Below, in pieces: positions 4,779-62,914 of a DNA stretch of 64,000 nt. A program made the translations under genes and the position numbers. Each line of letters opens with the position of its first letter. Within the stretch, counting starts at the first letter, position 1. Under the pieces are notes generated by a model that was given only the letters and a program-made list of their open reading frames with translations, was not told the DNA's origin and ran no database searches. Source of the stretch: Opitutales bacterium (GTDB taxonomy: Bacteria > Verrucomicrobiota > Verrucomicrobiia > Opitutales > JBHJGM01); NCBI GenBank assembly GCA_050331595.1, contig JBHJGQ010000004.1:140262-204261 (forward strand), read 5' to 3'.

Positions 4779-4821
4779 GCCTTGCCTCCAGGGGCGACGG
4801 AACGATAACTCCTGCACTTTT

Positions 4822-4899
4822 GGGGCGGTTAGCTCAGTTGGCTAGAGCGGCTGGTTTACACCCAGTAGGTCACAGGTTCGAGCCCTGTACCGCCCACCA
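4822..4899 (+). tRNA. tRNA-Val (anticodon TAC), CCA encoded
   Basis: Cloverleaf read by eye. Acceptor stem GGGGCGG/CCGCCCA, D-arm AGCTCAGTTGGCTAGAGC, anticodon stem GCTGG/CCAGT with loop TTTACAC, T-arm CAGGTTCGAGCCCTG, then ACCA. Confidence 0.9.
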
Positions 4900-4913
4900 G
4901 GAAATCCCGTTCG

Positions 4914-5423
4914 ATGCGACACACAATTTCAGCGCTGGTGGAAAACAAGTTCGGCGTGCTGGCCCGGGTGGCCGGCATGTTCAGCGGACGTGGCTTCAAC
5001 ATCGACACCCTCAACGTGGGCCCGGCGCAGGACCCGAACTATTCGCGCATCACCGCGACCTTGCACGGCGACGACGCGACCGTGGACCTGGCGCTGCGTC
5101 AGCTCGACAAGCTGATCAACGTGATCGAGGTGAAGCATTTCAGCAGCAGCCAAACCTTTGTGGCCCGCGAACTGGTCATGGTGAAGCTGCCCGTAAATCC
5201 CAAAACGCGTGGCGAGATCATCCAGATTGCCGACATCTTTCGCGGCAAAATCGTCGATGTGTCGCCCAGCTCGATCATCATCGAGTGCACCGGCAACGAG
5301 AACAAGATCCGCGCCTTTTTGGAGATGATCCAAGCCTACGGCATCACCGAGATGGCCCGCAGCGGGAACCTCGGTTTAGAACGCCGCGCGCGCCAGGATG
5401 AGACCCCGACCGACGTCCAATAG
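4914..5423 (+). CDS. ilvH: Acetolactate synthase small (regulatory) subunit
   Basis: 'MRHTISALVENKFGVLARVAGMFSGRGFNIDTLNVGP' is the ACT domain typical of IlvH/IlvN, and the gene is followed by ilvC. Confidence 0.9.
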   Translation: MRHTISALVENKFGVLARVAGMFSGRGFNIDTLNVGPAQDPNYSRITATLHGDDATVDLALRQLDKLINVIEVKHFSSSQTFVARELVMVKLPVNPKTRGEIIQIADIFRGKIVDVSPSSIIIECTGNENKIRAFLEMIQAYGITEMARSGNLGLERRARQDETPTDVQ

Positions 5424-54013: not shown

Positions 54014-55807
54014 ATGACGCTCCCACGTTCGATTTTGCTTTCTGTCGCCTCTGTCACGCTCAGCCTGCCTCTGATGAGTCGCGACGCCGCCATCGAAATC
54101 GGGGCCGAGGCCCTACACGCGGTCAATCCGCGGCTGTTTGGCCAGTTCATGGAACGGGCCAGCTGGGGGGAGCCGGGCCCGGAAGCCGTTCTGCAGGAAG
54201 GCGAGAAGGATCTTCCCGAGGCGGTGCTGGAACACTTCGAGGCAATGAACGTTCCGCTCATTCGCTACCCGGGTGGGTCCGACATCAAGGTGCTCGACTG
54301 GACCGATTGGATCTCGAACGCGCCCAACCGCGAAGACCCGGAACGCCCCGTCTCCAAGGGCATGCGAGGCGATCCCATTACCAATAACTTCGGTTTGGAC
54401 GAGTACTTCCGCCTGCGCGACCGGCTTGGCGCGGAGACCATCCTCGTAGTCAACCTGCACGATGCCCTCTACAAGGAAAAGGCGCTGGAGGCAGCCGCTC
54501 GTCATGCCGCGGGTCTGGTGGCTTATTGCAACGCGCCCGCCGGTGCCAAACTCCCTGAGGGCATGCCGGACTGGCCCGCAATCCGCGCCAAGAACGGGCA
54601 CCCCGAGCCGTTCGGCGTGGAGTATTTCCAAATTGGCAACGAGACGTATTTTTTCTGGCCACCCAAGGCCAAGGCCGCTGCCGACCTCGGCCTCGAGTCC
54701 TTCGACGCGCAGGCGGAGTACTACATCCAGTGCGTGGTGACCAAGGCCGATGCCATGCGCGCGGTCGATCCGTCGATTCGGCTGATCCTGGATGGTCCCC
54801 GTCAGGCATCCCATGACGAAAGCGACGTCCGGCGCGCGTTGTTTTATCGGGTGGCGGCGGACCCCCGCGTGCGTGAACGCTTCGAGTACTTGTCGTACCA
54901 CGCCTATGCGGGCAGCGGCACCCCCGTCCTTCTGCGGGTTTCTCGGCCAGAGGATGGGCCGATCGACGATTTCGAGACCGACCGGTGGTGGAAGGACCGG
55001 GTCAGCGGTACGGTGTTGCGTCAGGACGAAATCGATGCCGAAAGCCTCTGGTATGTTTGGATGGCGCGTCCGGGCTACATTGACGGACAGGGGCTCAACA
55101 ACGGGCTGGGCGAAATCACCGCCTTCGTCAAAGGTCTGGGGTACCGCATCGCCTGCACGGAATGGAACTTCAACCACTGGGGGGTGCCCGACCTGGAAGG
55201 CGGCTTGAAGCATCAGTGGGCTTCCGGACTGGGAGCCGCGGGCTTCATCCATGGCATGTTGCGTCAAGCCGATGTGATTGAACTGGGCGCGCAGAGCATG
55301 ATGCTGGGCGTGCAGTGGGGAATCAACTCGGTCCGCTATGACCCTGAGCGCGACCCGTCGGTTTACTTCCATCCGCAGGGCAGGGTGACCGCTTTTTACA
55401 GCAACAATGTCGGCACGGCCTTTTTGCCGGTGACCTACCGCGAGAATCCACGGGTACCGATCGACGCGCAGTACGTGGACGGCTGGGGTTGGCCCGAGCA
55501 AGCCTCGCTCGCCCTGGTCGACGCGGTGGCCACGCGCAACGAGGAGATGCTCTTCGTGCACTTGCTCCACCGGGAATTCTCCGACTCGCGCACGGTTGAG
55601 ATTCGCTTGGACGAGGCTTTCGGGCTTAGCTTTCCGACCGAAGCCACCCAGCGCATGCTGACCGGGGACATCACCGTCGGCTACGGGCCCAATACCGTCC
55701 ACGACGAGGAATCGGTGCCGCTCGTCCTTGAATCGAATACGCTGAAGCTTTCGCTCCCGCCGCGAAGCATTTCGATCCTGCGCATCCCGCTGCCGGCGAC
55801 ACCGTAG
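54014..55807 (+). CDS. GH51-like (clan GH-A) glycoside hydrolase, putative alpha-L-arabinofuranosidase-related
   Basis: Signal-like 'MTLPRSILLSVASVTLSLPLMS'. 'VNPRLFGQFMERASWG', 'IRYPGGSD' and 'YFQIGNETYF' (GNE acid/base motif). The sequence is a distant match, so the family call is tentative. Confidence 0.6.
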   Translation: MTLPRSILLSVASVTLSLPLMSRDAAIEIGAEALHAVNPRLFGQFMERASWGEPGPEAVLQEGEKDLPEAVLEHFEAMNVPLIRYPGGSDIKVLDWTDWISNAPNREDPERPVSKGMRGDPITNNFGLDEYFRLRDRLGAETILVVNLHDALYKEKALEAAARHAAGLVAYCNAPAGAKLPEGMPDWPAIRAKNGHPEPFGVEYFQIGNETYFFWPPKAKAAADLGLESFDAQAEYYIQCVVTKADAMRAVDPSIRLILDGPRQASHDESDVRRALFYRVAADPRVRERFEYLSYHAYAGSGTPVLLRVSRPEDGPIDDFETDRWWKDRVSGTVLRQDEIDAESLWYVWMARPGYIDGQGLNNGLGEITAFVKGLGYRIACTEWNFNHWGVPDLEGGLKHQWASGLGAAGFIHGMLRQADVIELGAQSMMLGVQWGINSVRYDPERDPSVYFHPQGRVTAFYSNNVGTAFLPVTYRENPRVPIDAQYVDGWGWPEQASLALVDAVATRNEEMLFVHLLHREFSDSRTVEIRLDEAFGLSFPTEATQRMLTGDITVGYGPNTVHDEESVPLVLESNTLKLSLPPRSISILRIPLPATP

Positions 55808-56085: not shown

Positions 56086-56844
56086 ATGATTACCTATCAT
56101 CGCACTCTAATCGCAGGTGGCGCTTTGATGCTCGCCGCCAGCCAGTCTCACGGTCAATCCCTGACCGTGATCGAAGGGCTGGACGACGATGCCATTCGCG
56201 GCCTGCCCACCGCTTAGGAGGTTGCGGCTCGCATTGGCGGGCCCGGCACCGAGCGTGAACTTGAGCTCGGCATTCCCAATGCGGGAAACTCCGCAAACAT
56301 CATCGACGAAGCGAGCTTCAACTGGGTCAGCAATCGACTTTATGAATGGGAACTCGATTACGACGCGAACCTCGATGCCGGCCAGCTCATCTTTTCGGTG
56401 AGAGATACAGTCACCGGAGAGGTTTTTGAAGTAACGAACGGCGCAGCCAGTGAGGGCGGCACTCCGGTCTTCGACGACGCGTTCACCACGTTGGCTTTTC
56501 GAGTCGCCGCGCCGGACAACAACACCGGTTCCGTTGCCGTAACGGTGGATTCGTTCAGCCTCGATCCGACGGGCTTCACTTCCTTCGAGCTGTTTGAGTT
56601 CGATGACCCGGGTCGTACGGAGGTTGTGCTGGTCAACGGCGCAGTCGGCGTCGACGACTCGTTCGTCTTCGGCGGCACGCTGGTTTTCGACAACCCGAAT
56701 GACCTTCGTCGTTCCCAGCTGGCTTTCCAGATCAAGGGCTTGGCCGGTGGCCAAGTCGTCCCCGAACCGAGCACCTATGCAGCCATCGCTGGTGTGCTCG
56801 CATTGGGCTTGGCCGTACTTCGGCGCCGCATGCGTCGCCGCTAA
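56086..56844 (+). pseudogene. PEP-CTERM protein gene interrupted by a single in-frame TAG (codon 44)
   Basis: ATG 56086 gives the signal peptide 'MITYHRTLIAGGALMLAASQSHGQS'. An in-frame TAG sits at 56215-56217. The same frame then stays open to TAA 56842-56844 and ends 'VPEPSTYAAIAGVLALGLAVLRRRMRRR'. The track only reports the GTG-initiated 3' part (56398-56844). Confidence 0.6.
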
Positions 56845-56880
56845 GGGACGCAACACAGCAATACTTAGGCTTCATTTTCA

Positions 56881-56914
56881 AGCGGCACCCCGGTTCGGGT
56901 GCCGCTTTTTTTTT
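56881..56914 (+). terminator. Rho-independent terminator
   Basis: AGCGGCACCC-cggttc-GGGTGCCGCT followed by T9, 37 nt after the PEP-CTERM gene stop. Confidence 0.75.
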
Positions 56915-57092: not shown

Positions 57093-57944
57093 CTACTCGG
57101 CGTTTCCCTCGGGTTCGAGAATCTGCAGGACAATCGCGGTCATGTTATCGCGGCTGGTGAAAGCGGCTTCGTTGACCAGGCGCTTGGGCGGGGGCAGATC
57201 GCTGTCGCGGGGAGGCGGCTCGCGGACGAGGCCCTCAATTTTCGAGGTGCTCACGCCATCGGTAATGCCGTCCGTGCACAGGACAAACCAGTCGCCGGGC
57301 TCGTAGAGGATGGTGCCCAGCTGCGGCTCCACGTTCCGGATCTTCCCGCCCAGGGCCATCTGCAGGGCGGCTTTGGCCGGGTGGCGGCGCGCCTCGAGTT
57401 CGCTCAGCTTCCCCTGGCGAACCAGCCAGCCGACGTGCGTGTGGTCGTAGGAAACCTGCTGTATCGGGCTGTTGCGTGCCAGGTGATACAGGCGGCTGTC
57501 GCCGGCGTGACCAAAATACGCCTTCTCCGGAGTGAACCAAATCAGGCTGAGCGTGGCACCCATGCCGGCAGTTTCTTCGTAGGCGCGCCCCAGATTGACC
57601 ATTTCCTGGTGCGTGCGCTCGAAGAGTTCTTCGAGGAAGTCTTCGCCGCCTGGGTGCAGCCCGGTGGCTTTGAGCCGGAAACTCCGGGGCAGCAGTTCGG
57701 AAATTTTGTCGACGGCAATCTGGCTGGCGTACTCCCCGGCTTGCGCCCCGCCCATGCCATCGCTGACGGCAAAGACAAAGTCTCCCTGGCCGAAAGACCC
57801 CTGGCCCTGGCTGCCCAAACGAAACACCTCCAACCCATCCAGTTGCAGGCCCAAAAAGGCATCCTCATTTTTTTTGCGGAATCGGCCAGGGTCGGTGAGG
57901 CCCCACCAACGAATCGCGGCAGGTGGCATGTTGTTGCTGGTCAT
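57093..57944 (-). CDS. PP2C-family Ser/Thr protein phosphatase
   Basis: 'TDPGRFRKKNEDAF', 'FAVSDGMGGAQAGEYAS', 'GATLSLIWF', 'HAGDSRLY', 'VLCTDGITD' and 'RDNMTAIV'. Confidence 0.88.
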   Translation of the reverse strand: MTSNNMPPAAIRWWGLTDPGRFRKKNEDAFLGLQLDGLEVFRLGSQGQGSFGQGDFVFAVSDGMGGAQAGEYASQIAVDKISELLPRSFRLKATGLHPGGEDFLEELFERTHQEMVNLGRAYEETAGMGATLSLIWFTPEKAYFGHAGDSRLYHLARNSPIQQVSYDHTHVGWLVRQGKLSELEARRHPAKAALQMALGGKIRNVEPQLGTILYEPGDWFVLCTDGITDGVSTSKIEGLVREPPPRDSDLPPPKRLVNEAAFTSRDNMTAIVLQILEPEGNAE

Positions 57945-58393
57945 TCCGTCAGATCACTTCGCTGGGACTGCCGGCGGTACTGCTCCACCTGCGCCACCAC
58001 GAGGCCTTCCCCGGTCTCCAGGTTGGTGGCGAACTCAAAGTCGATCAGGCAGAACCGGCCCAGCTGCGGACTGTAGGTCACGTTGCGAGGGTAGGGGTCC
58101 TCGTGCCGCACCCCGTATGATTCGAGTTCGGCAAACAAGGCCTTGAGCTTGTCCGGATTGATTTTGTCCACGATCTGACCGCAATTGCTCGTGACCAGCG
58201 CCGGGATGTCGGGATTGTCGTCCAGAACCCTCGGGACGAAGGGACAGTTCTTTTGCTCCAAAAAGCGCAAGATACGGCGCTCGTTGTCAAAACGTTCGAA
58301 GGCCATCGGTCCCACGAATTCCTTGGTCACGCGCCCATCGAAGGCAATCCGGACGCGGGCCTGTTTCGTGTCTTTGATATCCATAGCTTCCAC
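57941..58393 (-). CDS. Minimal protein-kinase-like protein (150 aa)
   Basis: Kinase-core landmarks appear in order: 'RVTKEF' (beta3 Lys), 'FDNERRILRFL' (alphaC Glu), 'VRHEDPYPRNV' (HxD...N catalytic loop) and 'CLIDFEFA' (DFG-like). No Gly-rich loop or C-lobe is evident. The stop overlaps the PP2C ATG (ATGA). Confidence 0.5.
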   Translation of the reverse strand: MEAMDIKDTKQARVRIAFDGRVTKEFVGPMAFERFDNERRILRFLEQKNCPFVPRVLDDNPDIPALVTSNCGQIVDKINPDKLKALFAELESYGVRHEDPYPRNVTYSPQLGRFCLIDFEFATNLETGEGLVVAQVEQYRRQSQRSDLTE

Positions 58394-58565
58394 TGGCGTT
58401 GCGGCGAAACCAAGGGCTGGTGGGTCAGGTGGTCAAATAAAGACACCCGCAGTTAGCTGGCATAATGCTTGCTTCTCAGGGCGTTTTCCGATTTCCAAAC
58501 CAGCCATCTCCTCCATGGTAACTCAATATTGGTCAACCCTTTCGCCCTGTAAATGAGGAACTCCT

Positions 58566-59579
58566 ATGCCTAAGTACAAACTCGAATACATCTGGCTCGA
58601 CGGTTACACGCCCGTCCCCAACCTGCGTGGCAAAACACGCCTGGCGAGCGAAGCGCCCAAGAGCATCGACGATCTCCCGGAATGGGGCTTCGACGGAAGC
58701 TCAACGCGTCAGGCCGACGGCAGCGACTCCGACTGCATGCTCAAACCGGTTGCGCTGTACCCGGACGTTGGGCGTGACGATCACTCCTTCATCGTGATGT
58801 GTGAGGTGATGCTGCCGGACGGCGCGCCGCACCCCTCCAACATGCGGGCCACGATCATCGACGACGCCGACGCCTGGTTTGGCCTCGAGCAAGAATACTT
58901 TCTTTTCCACGACAAGCGCCCGCTCGGCTGGCCCATCGGCGGTTATCCCGACCCCCAGGGTGAGTACTACACCGGCGTCGGATACGCCAACGTGGGCGAT
59001 GTTGCCCGCGAAATCGTCGACAAGCACCTGGACCTCTGTCTCGCGGCCGGGATCAACCACGAAGGCATCAACGCCGAGGTGGCCAAAGGTCAGTGGGAAT
59101 TTCAGATCTTCGCCAAGGGTTCCAAGAAGTGCGCGGACGACGTCTGGGTTGCCCGTTTTCTGCTGATGCGCCTGTGCGAGAAGTACAAGGTCGATGTGGA
59201 ATGGCACTGCAAACCCTTCCTGGGCGACTGGAACGGCTCGGGCATGCACTGCAACTTTTCGACGAAGCACCTGCGCGAAGTCGGCGGCAAAGACTACTTC
59301 CTCAAGCTCATGGACGCGTTCGAGAAGAACAAGGATGAGCACATCGCCGCCTACGGCCCGGACAACCACCTGCGCTTGACCGGCCTGCACGAAACGCAGT
59401 CCATCGACAAGTTCAGCTGGGGCGTGGCCGACCGCGGTGCCTCCATCCGCGTGCCGCACAGCTTCGTCAAGAACGACTACAAAGGATATCTGGAAGACCG
59501 CCGCCCCAATTCCCAGGGCGACCCCTACCAGATTTGTTCGCGTGTGCTCCGCACCATCGCAGAAGTGCCGCAGGGCTAA
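58566..59579 (+). CDS. glnII: Glutamine synthetase type II (eukaryote-like)
   Basis: 'MPKYKLEYIWLDGYTPVPNLRGKTR', 'WGFDGSSTRQA', 'GLEQEYFLF', 'YYTGVGYANVGDVAREIVDKHLDLCLAAGINHEGINAEVAKGQWEFQI' and 'SIRVP'. Confidence 0.9.
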   Translation: MPKYKLEYIWLDGYTPVPNLRGKTRLASEAPKSIDDLPEWGFDGSSTRQADGSDSDCMLKPVALYPDVGRDDHSFIVMCEVMLPDGAPHPSNMRATIIDDADAWFGLEQEYFLFHDKRPLGWPIGGYPDPQGEYYTGVGYANVGDVAREIVDKHLDLCLAAGINHEGINAEVAKGQWEFQIFAKGSKKCADDVWVARFLLMRLCEKYKVDVEWHCKPFLGDWNGSGMHCNFSTKHLREVGGKDYFLKLMDAFEKNKDEHIAAYGPDNHLRLTGLHETQSIDKFSWGVADRGASIRVPHSFVKNDYKGYLEDRRPNSQGDPYQICSRVLRTIAEVPQG

Positions 59580-59600: not shown

Positions 59601-59640
59601 AAACGGCGCTCTCCACCGCGGGGAGCGCCGTTTTGTTTTT
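59601..59640 (+). terminator. Rho-independent terminator
   Basis: AAACGGCGCTC-(11 nt)-GAGCGCCGTTT followed by TGTTTTT, 22 nt after the glnII stop. Confidence 0.72.
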
Positions 59641-59754
59641 AGGCTGAAAGAATCGGGCGAGCCTCTTGCATGGAGTCCGTAAGCGCGTGGTACGGAAGCG
59701 CCGCGACGATCTCGCGCTATCACTGGCATCTGCGGGGGAACGACAAAAGATTTA

Positions 59755-60489
59755 TCAGGTCGTGCCGCTGCGTTCAATGGCCAGGGGTTTCAACCGCGTG
59801 CCCGAAAGATCCGGCCGGTGCTCTGCCGTGGCGTCCGCAGTGTTTTTCGCGTGGATTTCTTGGATACGGCCCTCGTCGATGCGGAGGATACGGTCGCCCA
59901 GTCGGCGGGCTTCGCTCAGGCTATGCGTCACGTGCAGCACAGTGAGCTGACGGGTCTGCTGCTGCCGCTGGAGCAACTGGTAGAGGCCTTCACGCGTGTC
60001 GTCGTCTAAGGCGCTGACCGGTTCGTCCAGCAGGAGAATTTTCGGCTCGAAGGCCAGGGCGCGACCCAGGGCGACGCGCTGTTTCTCGCCACCGCTGAGG
60101 TGCTTGGGGCCGCGTTCGAGCAAATGGGCAATGTTCAGGTCCGTTGCCAGTTGCTCAACGCGCTTGCGGATCCGGTCCTTGCGAAGACCACGAATGCGCA
60201 GCGCAAAACCGAGCTGCTCCCGCGTCGGCATGGTGCTGAAGAGCACGCCGTCTTGGGGGACATAGCCGACGCCCCGCTCCGAGGGCTTCATCGCGGAAAC
60301 GTCGCGGTCCATCAGAAAAACGGAGCCCTTGGACGGTCGCTGCAGGCCGGCGATGATCTCCAGCAAGGTGGTTTTTCCACTGCCGCTTGGGCCCATCAAA
60401 ATGCTGTAAGCGCCGGTCGGCACCGTCAGGGCGAGGTTGCTCAGACGAAACGAACCCAGTTGGATCGAGAGGTTTCTGAGTTCGATCAT
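59755..60489 (-). CDS. ABC transporter ATP-binding protein (ModC/CysA-like)
   Basis: ATG 60489 gives 'MIELRNLSIQLGSF...LMGPSGSGKTTLL' (Walker A). Also 'LSGGEKQRVALGRAL' and 'LLLDEPVSALD'. The upstream 97 codons of the track ORF were rejected. Confidence 0.87.
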   Translation of the reverse strand: MIELRNLSIQLGSFRLSNLALTVPTGAYSILMGPSGSGKTTLLEIIAGLQRPSKGSVFLMDRDVSAMKPSERGVGYVPQDGVLFSTMPTREQLGFALRIRGLRKDRIRKRVEQLATDLNIAHLLERGPKHLSGGEKQRVALGRALAFEPKILLLDEPVSALDDDTREGLYQLLQRQQQTRQLTVLHVTHSLSEARRLGDRILRIDEGRIQEIHAKNTADATAEHRPDLSGTRLKPLAIERSGTT

Positions 60490-60491
60490 GG

Positions 60492-61367
60492 CTAGAGAAG
60501 AATGCGGCCACGGCCCCACACGCGTGCTGCGATCAAGACGCTCAGCGCCGCTACGATCATGATCAGCGAGACGGCGACGGCGGCTTCCAGATCGCCGATG
60601 CTCAGCTCGAGGAAAACCGTCGTCGCGAGCACTTCGGTTTTGTTGCGGGTAGCTCCGGCAAAAATCAGCAACGGACCGAACTCGCCCAGCGAGCGCGCCC
60701 AGGCAAGCGTGAGCGCCGTCAGCATGCCGTTGCGAACCTCCGGCACAACGACTTTCCAGAAGGCTTGCCAGCGGCTGCAACCCAAGGTCAGGGCAACATT
60801 CTCCGCGCGCGCATCGGTTTGGTCGAAGGTGGCGCGCATGGTGCGCACGGCAAAAGCAGCGGCGACCGTGTACTGCGCCAGGATCACGGCCGGTATCTGG
60901 TAAACGACCCAGCGACTGGCCAGGCTGAACGGAAGGAATTGAAACAGTATCAGCAGGCTCAAGCCGACCACAAGCGGCGGCAGCACAATCGGAATGTCGA
61001 AGATTGCCTCGACAAGATTCCGCCCGCGAAAGGGCACCCGTGCCAGCAGGTACGCGACCGGGACGGCCGTCAGCACCGAGAGAATCGCAGCCACCGTGCA
61101 GCTGATGAGCGTCAGTCCGATCGAGTAGCGAATCTCCGGTTTTTGCAGGGCCGCCACCATCGGGTGTGCCGCGGCCTCCTCGGCGTCGCCCACCACACGG
61201 GTGTCCAGCTGGAAGACATAGAGCACATCTGCCAGTACGAGCAGCACCAACAGCAGCGCGTAGGTGCCGCCGATCACCACGAACGCGGCGTAGAAAAACC
61301 GGTCAGCCACGCGGTGCGACCCGCCGATGTTCGCAGCCGCGAGGTCGTCTTTGGCCGGCGCGCTCAT
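60492..61367 (-). CDS. ABC transporter permease (ModB/CysTW-like)
   Basis: 'IPIVLPPLVVGLSLLILF', and the EAA-type loop 'LGCSRWQAFWKVVVPEVRNGMLTALTLAWARSLGEFG'. Confidence 0.84.
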   Translation of the reverse strand: MSAPAKDDLAAANIGGSHRVADRFFYAAFVVIGGTYALLLVLLVLADVLYVFQLDTRVVGDAEEAAAHPMVAALQKPEIRYSIGLTLISCTVAAILSVLTAVPVAYLLARVPFRGRNLVEAIFDIPIVLPPLVVGLSLLILFQFLPFSLASRWVVYQIPAVILAQYTVAAAFAVRTMRATFDQTDARAENVALTLGCSRWQAFWKVVVPEVRNGMLTALTLAWARSLGEFGPLLIFAGATRNKTEVLATTVFLELSIGDLEAAVAVSLIMIVAALSVLIAARVWGRGRILL

Positions 61368-62914
61368 CGCACTGGTCCATCCGCTATAAAGGTGAAGCCC
61401 GCCTCCTGGAACGCCGCGCGCGCGACCAAGACCGCATCGAGCAGGCGCTGGCTGAGGTGCGGGTGTGCGGTGTGCCTGGAAACAGCAAAAGGTTGCGTGG
61501 CCAGTGCCGCGGAATGGTCGATCGGGATGACCGCCACCCGGTCTTCCCGCAGGGTGTCCGTCTCATAGGCGATGGTGGCGTCAGCCGAGCGTGTCGCCAC
61601 CGTGGGGACGAGCATGGCGGAGGAAGCGGTCTGCATGACAACGTTTGCCATCACTGCATCTTTCAGCCCCACCTGCTCAAGGAGAATCCGCGTGAGCGCA
61701 CCGACGGTGCACTGCTCAGGCTGTCCCACGGTCACGCGCACGCCCGGGCGAGCGAGGTCTTCAAGGTTGCGGATGCCGGCCGGGTTGCCCCTGGGCACTG
61801 CGATGACGATCGGCGCGATGGAAATGTTGCGCCCGGGCAGGAACCAGTCCTGAACAGTGTCGAGGTCGTAGTGGTCGCAGGCCATATAGACATCTGGAAA
61901 GCCCGCGGCGGCCCCAGTCTGATTGAAGCGAATCGACTTCATCTGCCCGGTCAAGATGCCGCACTCGTTGTAGACCGTATTGATGGTGACCCCCTCGCGT
62001 TCCTGAAAAGCGCGCAGAACCGGTTCGATGGCCCGGCGGTTGACCGCGCCGCAGAAAAATGTGAGTTCGGGCCGGTCCGACCAGCGATCGCCTTGAATGG
62101 GTTCAAAGCGGTGAGCCGCGAAAAACTCATTGCCGATTTCGCTGTTGAGGAAACGCGCCAAATGCAGGGCGGCAGTCGCCGCTTGCGTGCTTTGAAGGAC
62201 GCCGATCGCGACTGTCTGCGTCTTCGCGGCCAGTACCGGGTCATGAATGATTTCGATCGCGGCGTGCTGACGCGCGGTGGCGTCCCAAACGATCGCTGCG
62301 TCGACGGCACGCAGCACGACGGCATTGGCCAACTCAGGAACCGTGGGCATGAAGACGCCGTTCTGCTCGGCCTGTTGCTTGATTGAACTCCAGTGTCCGG
62401 AAGCCCGAAGCCGTTCCCGCGTCTGCTTGCCAATGGAGGCGGCTTCCGGATTGCCCAGCGCCAGGCGCACGCCCGGACGCAGGAGATCGTCCAGACCCTG
62501 TATTCGCTGGGGATTGCCCGCTGGCACCGCGATGACGGGCGTGAGTTTGGCCAGCGGGAGGACTTCGGCGACCAAGCCTTCGCGCCTGGCAATGTCGGTG
62601 TATGAGCTGTCGGCGGCAAGATACAGATCGCCCGTTTTCGCAATCTTGAGGTTGCTCAGCAGCGTACCGGAACCTCCGTACTGGACCTGCACCCGCACCC
62701 CGTACTCTGTCTCGTAGCGCTCGAGCAGTTCTTCCACGGGCGGCTTGGCACTGGCGGCGCAGTACAGGGTGAGGGTTCGTGGCGACTCGGAATCCTGCGA
62801 GCCACCGCACCCGACCGCCAAGAGCGCCCATACGGCAAGGCATACCCTCAGTCCCGTGCGAATGGGAGCGAGGTTTCGCCGCTGGCGTGTCGCAAAAGCG
62901 AGCGGGGTTTTCAT
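61364..62914 (-). CDS. Lipoprotein with two tandem ModA-like (molybdate/tungstate-type) substrate-binding domains
   Basis: Lipobox 'LLAVGCGG'. Half 1 has 'LTLYCAASAKPPVEELL...YGGSGTLLSNL...VIAVPAGNPQRIQGLDDLLRPGVRLALGNPE'. Half 2 has 'LTFFCGAVNRRAIEPVL...VIAVPRGNPAGIRNLEDLARPGVRVTVGQPE'. ATGA overlap with the permease gene. Confidence 0.75.
   Translation of the reverse strand: MKTPLAFATRQRRNLAPIRTGLRVCLAVWALLAVGCGGSQDSESPRTLTLYCAASAKPPVEELLERYETEYGVRVQVQYGGSGTLLSNLKIAKTGDLYLAADSSYTDIARREGLVAEVLPLAKLTPVIAVPAGNPQRIQGLDDLLRPGVRLALGNPEAASIGKQTRERLRASGHWSSIKQQAEQNGVFMPTVPELANAVVLRAVDAAIVWDATARQHAAIEIIHDPVLAAKTQTVAIGVLQSTQAATAALHLARFLNSEIGNEFFAAHRFEPIQGDRWSDRPELTFFCGAVNRRAIEPVLRAFQEREGVTINTVYNECGILTGQMKSIRFNQTGAAAGFPDVYMACDHYDLDTVQDWFLPGRNISIAPIVIAVPRGNPAGIRNLEDLARPGVRVTVGQPEQCTVGALTRILLEQVGLKDAVMANVVMQTASSAMLVPTVATRSADATIAYETDTLREDRVAVIPIDHSAALATQPFAVSRHTAHPHLSQRLLDAVLVARAAFQEAGFTFIADGPVR

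Follow-up and report, generated by a model that had tools for sequence, protein, structure and literature searches.

A minimal protein-kinase-like (PKL) protein of 147 residues is encoded in contig JBHJGQ010000004.1 of an Opitutales bacterium, together with a PP2C-type (PPM) Ser/Thr phosphatase and divergently from glnII, the gene for a type II glutamine synthetase (GSII); the whole stretch of DNA that was analysed, 64,000 nt in length, is called the window below. We found that PKL stands for a new and extremely reduced family of kinase-like proteins, encoded in a conserved module together with PP2C and GSII, as observed in its predicted fold, the conservation of its residues, the coupling and fusion of its gene to that of the phosphatase, and the linkage of the pair to glnII. 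Judged by sequence, PKL and PP2C form a putative two-part module for reversible phosphorylation, which is conserved across the Verrucomicrobiota and in some Planctomycetota. We tentatively propose that the pair is a kinase/phosphatase switch, in which PKL phosphorylates a protein and PP2C reverses this, the target being GSII or a factor dedicated to it, and we regard this proposal as quite possible while falling somewhat short of probable.

An earlier note on this DNA had drawn attention to the locus, and the positions it gave for the three open reading frames (ORFs) are borne out by the ORF listing and the sequence. The segments RVTKEF, NERRIL, HEDPYPRN and IDFEFA are all present in the order it described, HEDPYPRN and DFE being confirmed by translation, and the ATGA in which the PKL stop codon overlaps the PP2C start codon reads TCAT on the forward strand at 57941–57944. 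The length of 150 aa that it gave for the small ORF holds if translation starts at the in-frame GTG at 58393, but not for the start used in the family: P0001, an identical database protein from an Opitutales metagenome-assembled genome (MAG), and all homologues begin at the ATG at 58384 (MDIKDTK...), which gives 147 aa. Counted from this ATG, the spacer to glnII is 181 nt and not 172 nt, and the equivalent spacer in related genomes has a median of 196 nt.

A word-seeded search with 1400 candidates gave at least 1394 clusters of PKL at 90% identity, an exhaustive profile search gave 429 representatives at 50% identity, 68 of them with E values below 1e-30, and a scan of one genome per species gave at least 568 carriers. 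The best 80 carriers belong to Opitutales, Puniceicoccales, Limisphaerales, Verrucomicrobiales and Pedosphaera, with a few Pirellulaceae and other Planctomycetota, and the proteins are 134–169 aa long in most of the 120 clusters listed, one having 185 aa. Conservation was calculated over 169 full-length members with identities down to 32%. Lys4, Lys21, Arg100, Asn101 and Asp115-Phe116-Glu117 were each conserved at 100%, Glu35 at 99%, and His94 and Asp96 at 98%; the catalytic Lys, Glu, Asp, Asn and Asp which the earlier note had picked out are thus kept in the homologues. It could be argued that the PKL ORF is the remnant of a longer Hanks kinase in decay, or that it arose by chance, carries kinase-like motifs and has no function, as it is short and most of the C-terminal lobe (C-lobe) is gone. 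However, the length is the same in hundreds of species, the catalytic residues are conserved at 98–100%, the G+C content at third codon positions (GC3) is 0.77 and similar to that of the adjoining genes, coupling and fusions are conserved, and the fold is confidently predicted; decay or chance is therefore hardly conceivable, and we rejected it as refuted by conservation.

Three cysteines of the PKL protein are also strongly conserved in the family, Cys47 (codon 58244–58246, reverse strand) and Cys68 (58181–58183, reverse strand) at 98% each, and Cys112 (58049–58051, reverse strand) in 163 of 169 members. They may serve in redox chemistry, metal binding or packing. For Cys47 and Cys68 as a covarying disulfide or metal pair there was no support, because each is lost independently in rare exceptions.

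No curated Pfam or NCBIfam model covers the PKL family, and no published description of it was found in full-text literature searches. Of the families that the earlier note had proposed for hidden Markov model (HMM) searches, APH and Kdo did match the window PKL, though below threshold (19.6 with a cut-off of 23.2, and 18.8 with a cut-off of 21.3), while there was no match to the RIO HMM and none to Pkinase (PF00069) even at E 10. Some members of the family exceed the APH cut-off (P0143 with 37.0, P0126 with 30.4 and P0139 with 29.3). The top NCBIfam match of the window protein was the kinase region of LanKC (E 9e-6), and the Bud32 model TIGR03724 gave 13.8 bits against a cut-off of 125. In public records, NCBI names the 147-aa protein ‘serine/threonine protein phosphatase’ (P0001, P0003, P0012, P0016, P0024, P0025 and P0037), which is probably a spill-over from PKL::PP2C fusion proteins, and other labels are Bud32 or ‘predicted Ser/Thr protein kinase’ from the Joint Genome Institute (JGI), and also ‘hypothetical’. 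This annotation is inconsistent and partly wrong, and with no model in Pfam or NCBIfam the family is invisible to kinome surveys.

The kinase-like fold suggested in the earlier note was recovered by structure prediction. An AlphaFold2 model built on an alignment of 35 sequences had a predicted local distance difference test score (pLDDT) of 87.2 and a predicted template modelling score (pTM) of 0.82. Its elements are, in this order, three strands, the third of which holds Lys21, a long helix with Glu35, two strands and a helix, the HEDPYPRN loop, two strands, DFE and a terminal helix (residues 130–146), so that the topology is that of a canonical kinase up to subdomain VII. Foldseek searches of this model against the PDB gave a probability of 1.00 and query template modelling scores (TM-scores) of 0.51–0.59, and the top matches were the Kae1-Bud32 fusion (3en9, 2vwb) and then Ark1 (8yv4, 8yv5; 171–173 aa), with human PRPK (6wqx), CK2 alpha, the kinase domain of the lanthipeptide synthetase CuvL (LanKC) and Rio2 among the further ones. 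When the PKL sequence profile was compared with the PDB, the matches were mainly protein Ser/Thr kinases, such as Cdc7 (E 0.005), CK2, MAPK11 and RSK, with alignments spanning the catalytic loop and the DFG region, and included a few weak unrelated proteins. PKL has an Arg at HxD+4 in place of a Lys at HxD+2, which is reminiscent of tyrosine kinases with their HRDLAARN loop.

PKL thus has the bilobal fold elements and the Lys, Glu, HxD Asp, Asn and DFG Asp of the protein-kinase-like superfamily, but not the complete C-lobe with helices F to I, which its model closes with the single terminal helix. It does not belong with the Hanks kinases, having no GxGxxG loop, no APE motif or activation segment and no Pkinase match, nor did it pass as a member of the Bud32, ArkI, RIO or Kdo families. 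The absence of a Gly-rich loop, as stated earlier, is correct for the sequence, yet the model has the usual three N-terminal strands, and the invariant Lys4 sits in strand 1. Similarly, the remark that the protein ends soon after the DFG-like motif was right but understated the reduction, because conservation in relatives fused to PP2C stops ∼6–8 residues past DFE. In these PKL::PP2C fusions a low-complexity linker replaces the terminal helix of the stand-alone form, and in the model of a fusion both domains are confident, the linker has a pLDDT of <50 (residues 130–136), and the kinase-like domain ends near residue 123. The linker and the end of conservation hence place the conserved PKL unit at ∼123 residues, which is well under Ark1 (∼172 aa, PDB chains). 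Bud32, Kdo and RIO kinases have ∼190–260 aa, and PKL is smaller than all three, whereas the earlier note had put it as comparable in size or smaller. According to these models, PKL is predicted to be a stripped-down member of the protein-kinase-like superfamily in which the N-lobe is complete and the C-lobe is cut down to its catalytic half, and the PP2C partner is a candidate for covering the surface usually buried by helix F.

The structural matches also raise the alternative that PKL does not act on proteins but phosphorylates RNA, in the manner of ArkI, or a small molecule, like the APH and Kdo enzymes, and that PP2C is unrelated to this or has a different role. Ark1 is the second-best structural match and ArkI also has DFE, the Pfam matches are to APH and Kdo only (below cut-off in the window protein and above it in some members), and the JGI labels of some members, as cited above, point the same way. 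We consider this alternative very improbable, since ArkI has HGQ and a YKR motif whereas the PKL family keeps HxD and has no YKR, no ArkI chain was present among the 60 matches listed of 81 in the PDB profile search, and the frequent coupling or fusion to a protein Ser/Thr phosphatase would be hard to explain.

The phosphatase ORF matched the Pfam models PP2C_2 with 51.1 bits (cut-off 24) and PP2C with 36.1 (cut-off 20.3), and it carries the motifs NED26-28, DGMGG62-66, GDSR148-151, TDG224-226 and RDN265-267. With the NCBIfam model Stp1/IreP it gave E 2.5e-46 and 158.1 bits, below the equivalog cut-off of 230, and it is thus related to Stp1/IreP without being an equivalog. In a fusion homologue, the PP2C domain could be superposed on tPphA, PstP and Stp1 (target TM-scores 0.86–0.90). 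Its top Foldseek match was tPphA (E 2e-20, target TM-score 0.89), for which the Foldseek description reads ‘cyanobacterial PP2C-like phosphatase’, and the idea of taking the substrate of the window PP2C from this nearest structure was dropped, because PstP and Stp1 scored almost equally.

The coupling of the two genes was studied in related loci from species genomes and from metagenomes; both sets consist of the 80 best-scoring matches and were not sampled at random, taxon labels follow the records, ORF boundaries were taken from tblastn coordinates, and the metagenome loci were retrieved with a fusion alignment. Among the 80 species genomes, 76 of which were assessable for PP2C, the phosphatase gene lies directly 3′ of PKL on the same strand in 61, and it overlaps or is fused in 5 more. 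The PKL-PP2C junctions (n = 69) comprised 38 overlaps, typically of 4 or 1 nt, 16 gaps of ≤30 nt and 6 in-frame fusions. The fusion proteins are ∼400 aa long, with PKL at the N-terminus and PP2C at the C-terminus, and many of them occur in Verrucomicrobiales-type lineages; more than 120 clusters of fusions span the whole query, and an alignment of 50 fusions shows no variation in the kinase residues or in the metal ligands of PP2C. The tight link to PP2C, read by the earlier note from a single overlap, therefore extends to overlapping or near-overlapping genes in most genomes and to natural fusions. In ∼9 of the 76 genomes the PKL gene has no adjacent PP2C; the 3′ genes in these loci are unrelated to one another, and no substitute phosphatase was found among them.

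The main rival to a kinase/phosphatase switch concerns the role of PKL itself. PKL may be a Bud32-like regulatory subunit or N-terminal domain which binds or hydrolyses ATP and whose nucleotide state switches PP2C, in which case the phosphatase would act on GSII or another protein that is phosphorylated by a separate kinase. Such a role explains both the absent substrate-binding lobe and the N-terminal place of PKL in the fusions, which is the usual site of PP2C regulatory domains. Bud32 in Kae1-Bud32 is a partner-controlled ATPase; moreover, the Kae1-Bud32 fusion is the best structural match of PKL, PRPK is among the top matches, and the C-terminal helix of the stand-alone form is dispensable in the fusions. 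On the other hand, the Asp96 base is kept at 98% along with the whole set of metal and phosphate ligands, which fits phosphotransfer, although Bud32 keeps these too, and in ∼9 of 76 genomes the PKL gene stands without an adjacent PP2C. Taken together, we judge a purely regulatory PKL to be rather unlikely.

The identity of the third gene is clear from Gln-synt_N and Gln-synt_C matches above the Pfam cut-offs, and from a match to NCBIfam GlnII (E 3.9e-114) which, at 381 bits, is below the equivalog cut-off of 500. Its best solved relative is 4bax_A (E 5.5e-96), named ‘glutamine synthetase’, which we take to be the GSII of Streptomyces coelicolor. The window GlnII is 73–74% identical to rhizobial GlnII proteins, which are megaplasmid- or chromid-encoded, and a comparison of L167–L169 gave values as high as those to many other Verrucomicrobiota; from sequence, this suggests either very strong constraint or horizontal transfer.

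In the species genomes, glnII adjoins the pair in 42 of 64 assessable loci (66%), where it is divergent in 41 and upstream on the same strand in 1, and in the metagenome loci it does so in 35 of 42 (83%), where it is divergent in 20, upstream on the same strand in 5 and downstream on the same strand in 10. The position beside glnII, from which the earlier note had drawn the possibility that GSII is regulated, was therefore recovered as synteny in both sets. Among culturable carriers, isolates of Cerasicoccus and Pelagicoccus (L004, L013, L014) have all three genes together. When the ORFs of the 80 genome loci were clustered all against all, PP2C and glnII were left as the sole recurrent neighbours of PKL, other families being found in ≤6 loci. 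A different order is even found in another phylum, in a Pirellulaceae MAG (L057, 3758–6194), where glnII lies 5′ of an in-frame PKL::PP2C fusion on the same strand. Adjacency that survives such rearrangements argues for selection on the linkage of the pair with glnII rather than for an inherited gene order.

Three marine Verrucomicrobiales contigs (L081–L083) carry the fusion gene without adjacent glnII. According to Pfam, its neighbours there are an argininosuccinate/adenylosuccinate lyase, an M20 peptidase and an ArgA-like N-acetylglutamate synthase/kinase, and on this sequence evidence the setting could be another nitrogen-metabolism context or a coincidence.

The sigma54-type element TGGCATAATGCTTGCT in front of glnII is the sole match to TGGCAY-N5-TTGCW in the 64-kb window. 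An equivalent element was found ∼50–115 nt 5′ of glnII in 54 of 55 divergent loci, and in the metagenome loci it was present in 32/32 divergent, 17/17 downstream same-strand and 3/7 upstream same-strand arrangements, compared with a background of 27 in 800 random 200-nt windows; its conserved form in the related loci (L001–L080, L087–L166) is TGGCAY-N5-xTGCT. These sequences indicate that glnII is a probable sigma54-dependent gene across the Verrucomicrobiota, and that it appears to be transcribed independently of the pair, even when it lies 3′ on the same strand. A sigma54 promoter of its own accompanies glnII whether the gene is divergent from the pair or downstream of it on the same strand, and the linkage is therefore not merely a matter of a shared promoter or operon. 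Moreover, the conserved promoter makes glnII nitrogen-regulon-like, and rhizobial glnII is a sigma54-dependent gene of the nitrogen regulon. The hairpin after glnII in the window suggests that the gene is monocistronic.

In a second alternative, PKL and PP2C are a genuine kinase/phosphatase switch that acts within nitrogen control on a protein other than GSII, such as PII or the enhancer-binding activator of the sigma54 promoter, and adjacency to glnII would reflect a shared regulon. The conserved sigma54 promoter needs an activator, the phosphate on Ser49 of cyanobacterial PII is removed by the PP2C phosphatase PphA, and tPphA is the top structural match of the PP2C domain, with PstP and Stp1 almost equal. 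No module-specific Ser/Thr was found in GlnII (see below), and many loci have no adjacent glnII, both of which would fit a substrate elsewhere. However, a PII-like T-loop motif is absent from the 64-kb window, neither PII nor a regulator gene is found repeatedly around the pair, glnII being its only conserved neighbour, and adjacency is held in three gene orders, which points to glnII itself. Another substrate within nitrogen control is thus unlikely in our view, and we keep to GSII, or a factor dedicated to it, as the likeliest target.

Under the proposed switch, PKL would bind Mg-ATP through Lys21, Glu35, the HxDxxxRN loop and the DFE aspartate, and the invariant Lys4 and Arg100 may substitute for the absent Gly-rich loop and the lysine of the catalytic loop. 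It would then phosphorylate a Ser or Thr of its protein target, and the co-translated PP2C would strip the phosphate off again. Synthesis at a 1:1 ratio through the ATGA overlap, or as one polypeptide, means that the two are probably held in one complex, which would be a push-pull modifier with a net direction set by a metabolic signal. The likeliest target would be the neighbouring GSII or a factor dedicated to it, by which GSII would gain a covalent control that matches the adenylylation of GSI by GlnE. As a precedent, the GSII of plants and algae is controlled through 14-3-3 binding and reversible phosphorylation (PMC8668187). What we infer in this scheme is that PKL acts as a kinase, that the two proteins form a complex, which protein is the substrate and what the signal is.

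Several observations weigh against this scheme. PKL has no Gly-rich loop, no activation segment and no helices F–I, the last of which bind peptide substrates in Hanks kinases; with these substrate-binding parts missing, protein-kinase activity of PKL is not a given. The window protein is below the threshold of every curated kinase model, the ATPase Bud32 and the RNA kinase Ark1 are among its nearest structural relatives, and in the fusion model, with a pTM of 0.69, a fixed interface between kinase-like domain and PP2C is not confidently predicted. As to the target, about one third of the species genomes have no glnII beside the pair; the genes found upstream in its place, encoding ABC transporters, an aminoacyl-tRNA synthetase, RsgA, a TonB receptor and a caspase-like protein, are unrelated, and none was a substitute nitrogen gene. 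All three fusion genes that were inspected individually are without glnII nearby. Conversely, three proteobacterial glnII loci examined are all without the PKL-PP2C pair, and rhizobial GlnII, in spite of its 73–74% identity to the window protein, has no such module nearby. Finally, 100 module-linked GlnII sequences were compared for phosphosites with five unlinked ones, which were three proteobacterial GlnII, 4bax_A and 3fky_A, presumably the glutamine synthetase of yeast. No Ser or Thr stood out clearly as specific to the linked set in this comparison, since every one conserved at ≥90% is also kept in the unlinked set apart from Ser279, which gave a partial signal for the linked set. In the searched literature, no report was found of phosphorylation or other covalent control of a bacterial GSII.

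The strongest form of the proposal, that PKL is the smallest catalytically competent protein kinase domain known (∼123 residues, without helices F–I), is completed by PP2C or functions only when bound to it, and serves with it as a bifunctional Ser/Thr switch of GSII, is doubtful on the present evidence. A dedicated kinase/phosphatase pair beside GSII in hundreds of Verrucomicrobiota would make covalent control of GSII directly testable, the components being one enzyme and a pair of small, soluble proteins. With all catalytic residues but no helix F scaffold, a core of ∼123 residues would set a new lower limit to the size of a kinase fold, and it would also illustrate how the missing half can be supplied by a partner protein. 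If true, the module would be the counterpart of GlnE on GSI, without homology to it, and would parallel in bacteria the control of plant GSII by phosphorylation.

The coordinates of the locus are collected in the table. Elsewhere in the window, a small secreted-type protein with a C-terminal PEP-CTERM signal (TIGR02595, 23.8 bits with a cut-off of 16) is encoded at 56398–56844 (+), convergent with the PP2C gene and followed by a strong terminator-like hairpin at 56880–56907. Convergent with glnII, a molybdate/tungstate-type ABC transporter operon with overlapping genes occupies 59755–62914 (−) and encodes a double-length ModA-like binding protein (516 aa), a ModB-like permease and a WtpC/ModC-like ATPase. 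A tRNA-Val gene (anticodon TAC) lies at 4823–4899 (+), and the long ‘ORF’ at 4820–5401 over it (GC3 0.42) is probably non-coding. The 597-aa protein encoded at 54014–55807 (+) has weak similarity to the arabinofuranosidase ArfA, and together with the N termini of several other ORFs in the window, which may be sulfatase-like or LacI-like, it would suggest, as far as these sequences go, a polysaccharide-degrading genome of the Opitutales type.

Table. Coordinates of the PKL-PP2C-glnII locus in the window
Feature	Position	Strand	Basis or remark
PKL gene, 147-aa minimal protein-kinase-like protein, stop codon included	57941..58384	-	ORF list; identical to database protein P0001
PP2C (PPM) Ser/Thr phosphatase gene, 283 aa	57093..57944	-	Pfam and NCBIfam matches, metal-binding motifs
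ATGA, PKL stop (TGA) overlapping PP2C start (ATG)	57941..57944	-	TCAT on + strand
Divergent spacer between PKL-PP2C operon and glnII	58385..58565		181 nt to glnII ATG at 58566
glnII, type II glutamine synthetase, 337 aa	58566..59579	+	ORF list, HMM and structure-database matches
Sigma54-type -24/-12 element TGGCATAATGCTTGCT	58458..58473	+	92 nt 5′ of glnII ATG
Intrinsic-terminator-like hairpin and T tract 3′ of glnII	59601..59643	+	14-bp stem, 9 G-C pairs
Lys21 codon (equivalent of beta3 ‘VAIK’ lysine)	58322..58324	-	100% conserved; model strand 19-23
Glu35 codon (equivalent of helix C glutamate)	58280..58282	-	99% conserved; model helix 28-44
Catalytic loop HEDPYPRN with His94, Asp96, Arg100 and Asn101	58082..58105	-	Translation and conservation; aligns to HRDxKxxN loop of Cdc7/CK2
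DFE motif Asp115-Phe116-Glu117 (DFG equivalent)	58034..58042	-	Translation; 100% conserved

Two known kinds of system were set aside in comparing the module with others. A partner-switching kinase of the GHKL type with PP2C, as in RsbW/SpoIIAB, was rejected because the PKL model is kinase-like and not GHKL and no STAS domain was present in the Pfam-scanned neighbours; an anti-phage defence system was rejected because PADLOC gave no match to PKL and a weak generic match only to PP2C. The closest structural relative is Bud32/PRPK (3en9, 2vwb, 6wqx), which, like PKL, has a kinase fold of very small size with a reduced C-lobe and without activation segment, and whose natural fusion with a partner enzyme (Kae1-Bud32) parallels PKL::PP2C. 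However, sequence similarity between the two is negligible, the PKL core is ∼70–100 residues shorter and has the catalytic loop HEDPxxRN, its partners are PP2C and glnII with no Kae1/TsaD among the neighbours examined, and PKL is restricted to Verrucomicrobiota and Planctomycetota. ArkI/Ark1 (COG2112, AQ578), the archaeal tRNA 2′-kinase, is likewise a mini eukaryote-like kinase and the second-best structural match (8yv5). ArkI has DFE in place of DFG, HGQ for HRD, a P-loop and a C-terminal RNA-binding helix with YKR (PMC9095486). The PKL family, unlike ArkI, keeps His-x-Asp (loop HED) and has neither the YKR motif nor the helix, and ArkI belongs to tRNA maturation, where the eraser is a Tpt1/KptA-type enzyme and not a PP2C.

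In its gene arrangement the module resembles the operons of Hanks kinases with PP2C phosphatases (PrkC/PrpC, PknB/PstP and Stk1/Stp1), in which kinase and PP2C genes are likewise neighbouring and co-transcribed; the PP2C falls into the structural group of Stp1, PstP and PphA, and the catalytic loop and DFG region of PKL align to Ser/Thr kinases. In contrast to the catalytic domain of ∼270 aa in those kinases, PKL has ∼123–147 aa and no Pkinase match, and it is without Gly-rich loop, activation segment, helices F–I, transmembrane segment and PASTA domains; moreover, it is often fused to its phosphatase, and the module is linked to glnII. For a regulator gene dedicated to glnII in the same divergent position, the comparison is with GstI, a small translational inhibitor whose gene is divergent from the sigma54-dependent glnII in rhizobia, although that protein is unrelated to PKL and its mechanism works at the RNA level. 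A 72-aa DUF6500 gene is divergent from glnII in a Roseateles-labelled locus (L168), and it may correspond to rhizobial GstI.

For the proposed function, the nearest parallels are those in which opposing modifying and demodifying activities act on one metabolic enzyme from one polypeptide or complex, as in GlnE, the adenylyltransferase/removase of GSI, and AceK, the isocitrate dehydrogenase kinase/phosphatase. These are functional analogies only: GlnE has no homology to PKL-PP2C, for which target and both activities are inferred, and AceK is a large kinase-like protein with both activities in one site. To our knowledge, 14-3-3 proteins are absent from bacteria. In plants and algae, the same enzyme class, GSII, is under reversible Ser/Thr phosphorylation, which affects decamer assembly (PMC8668187); this control is eukaryotic, and its kinases are full-size and unrelated to PKL.

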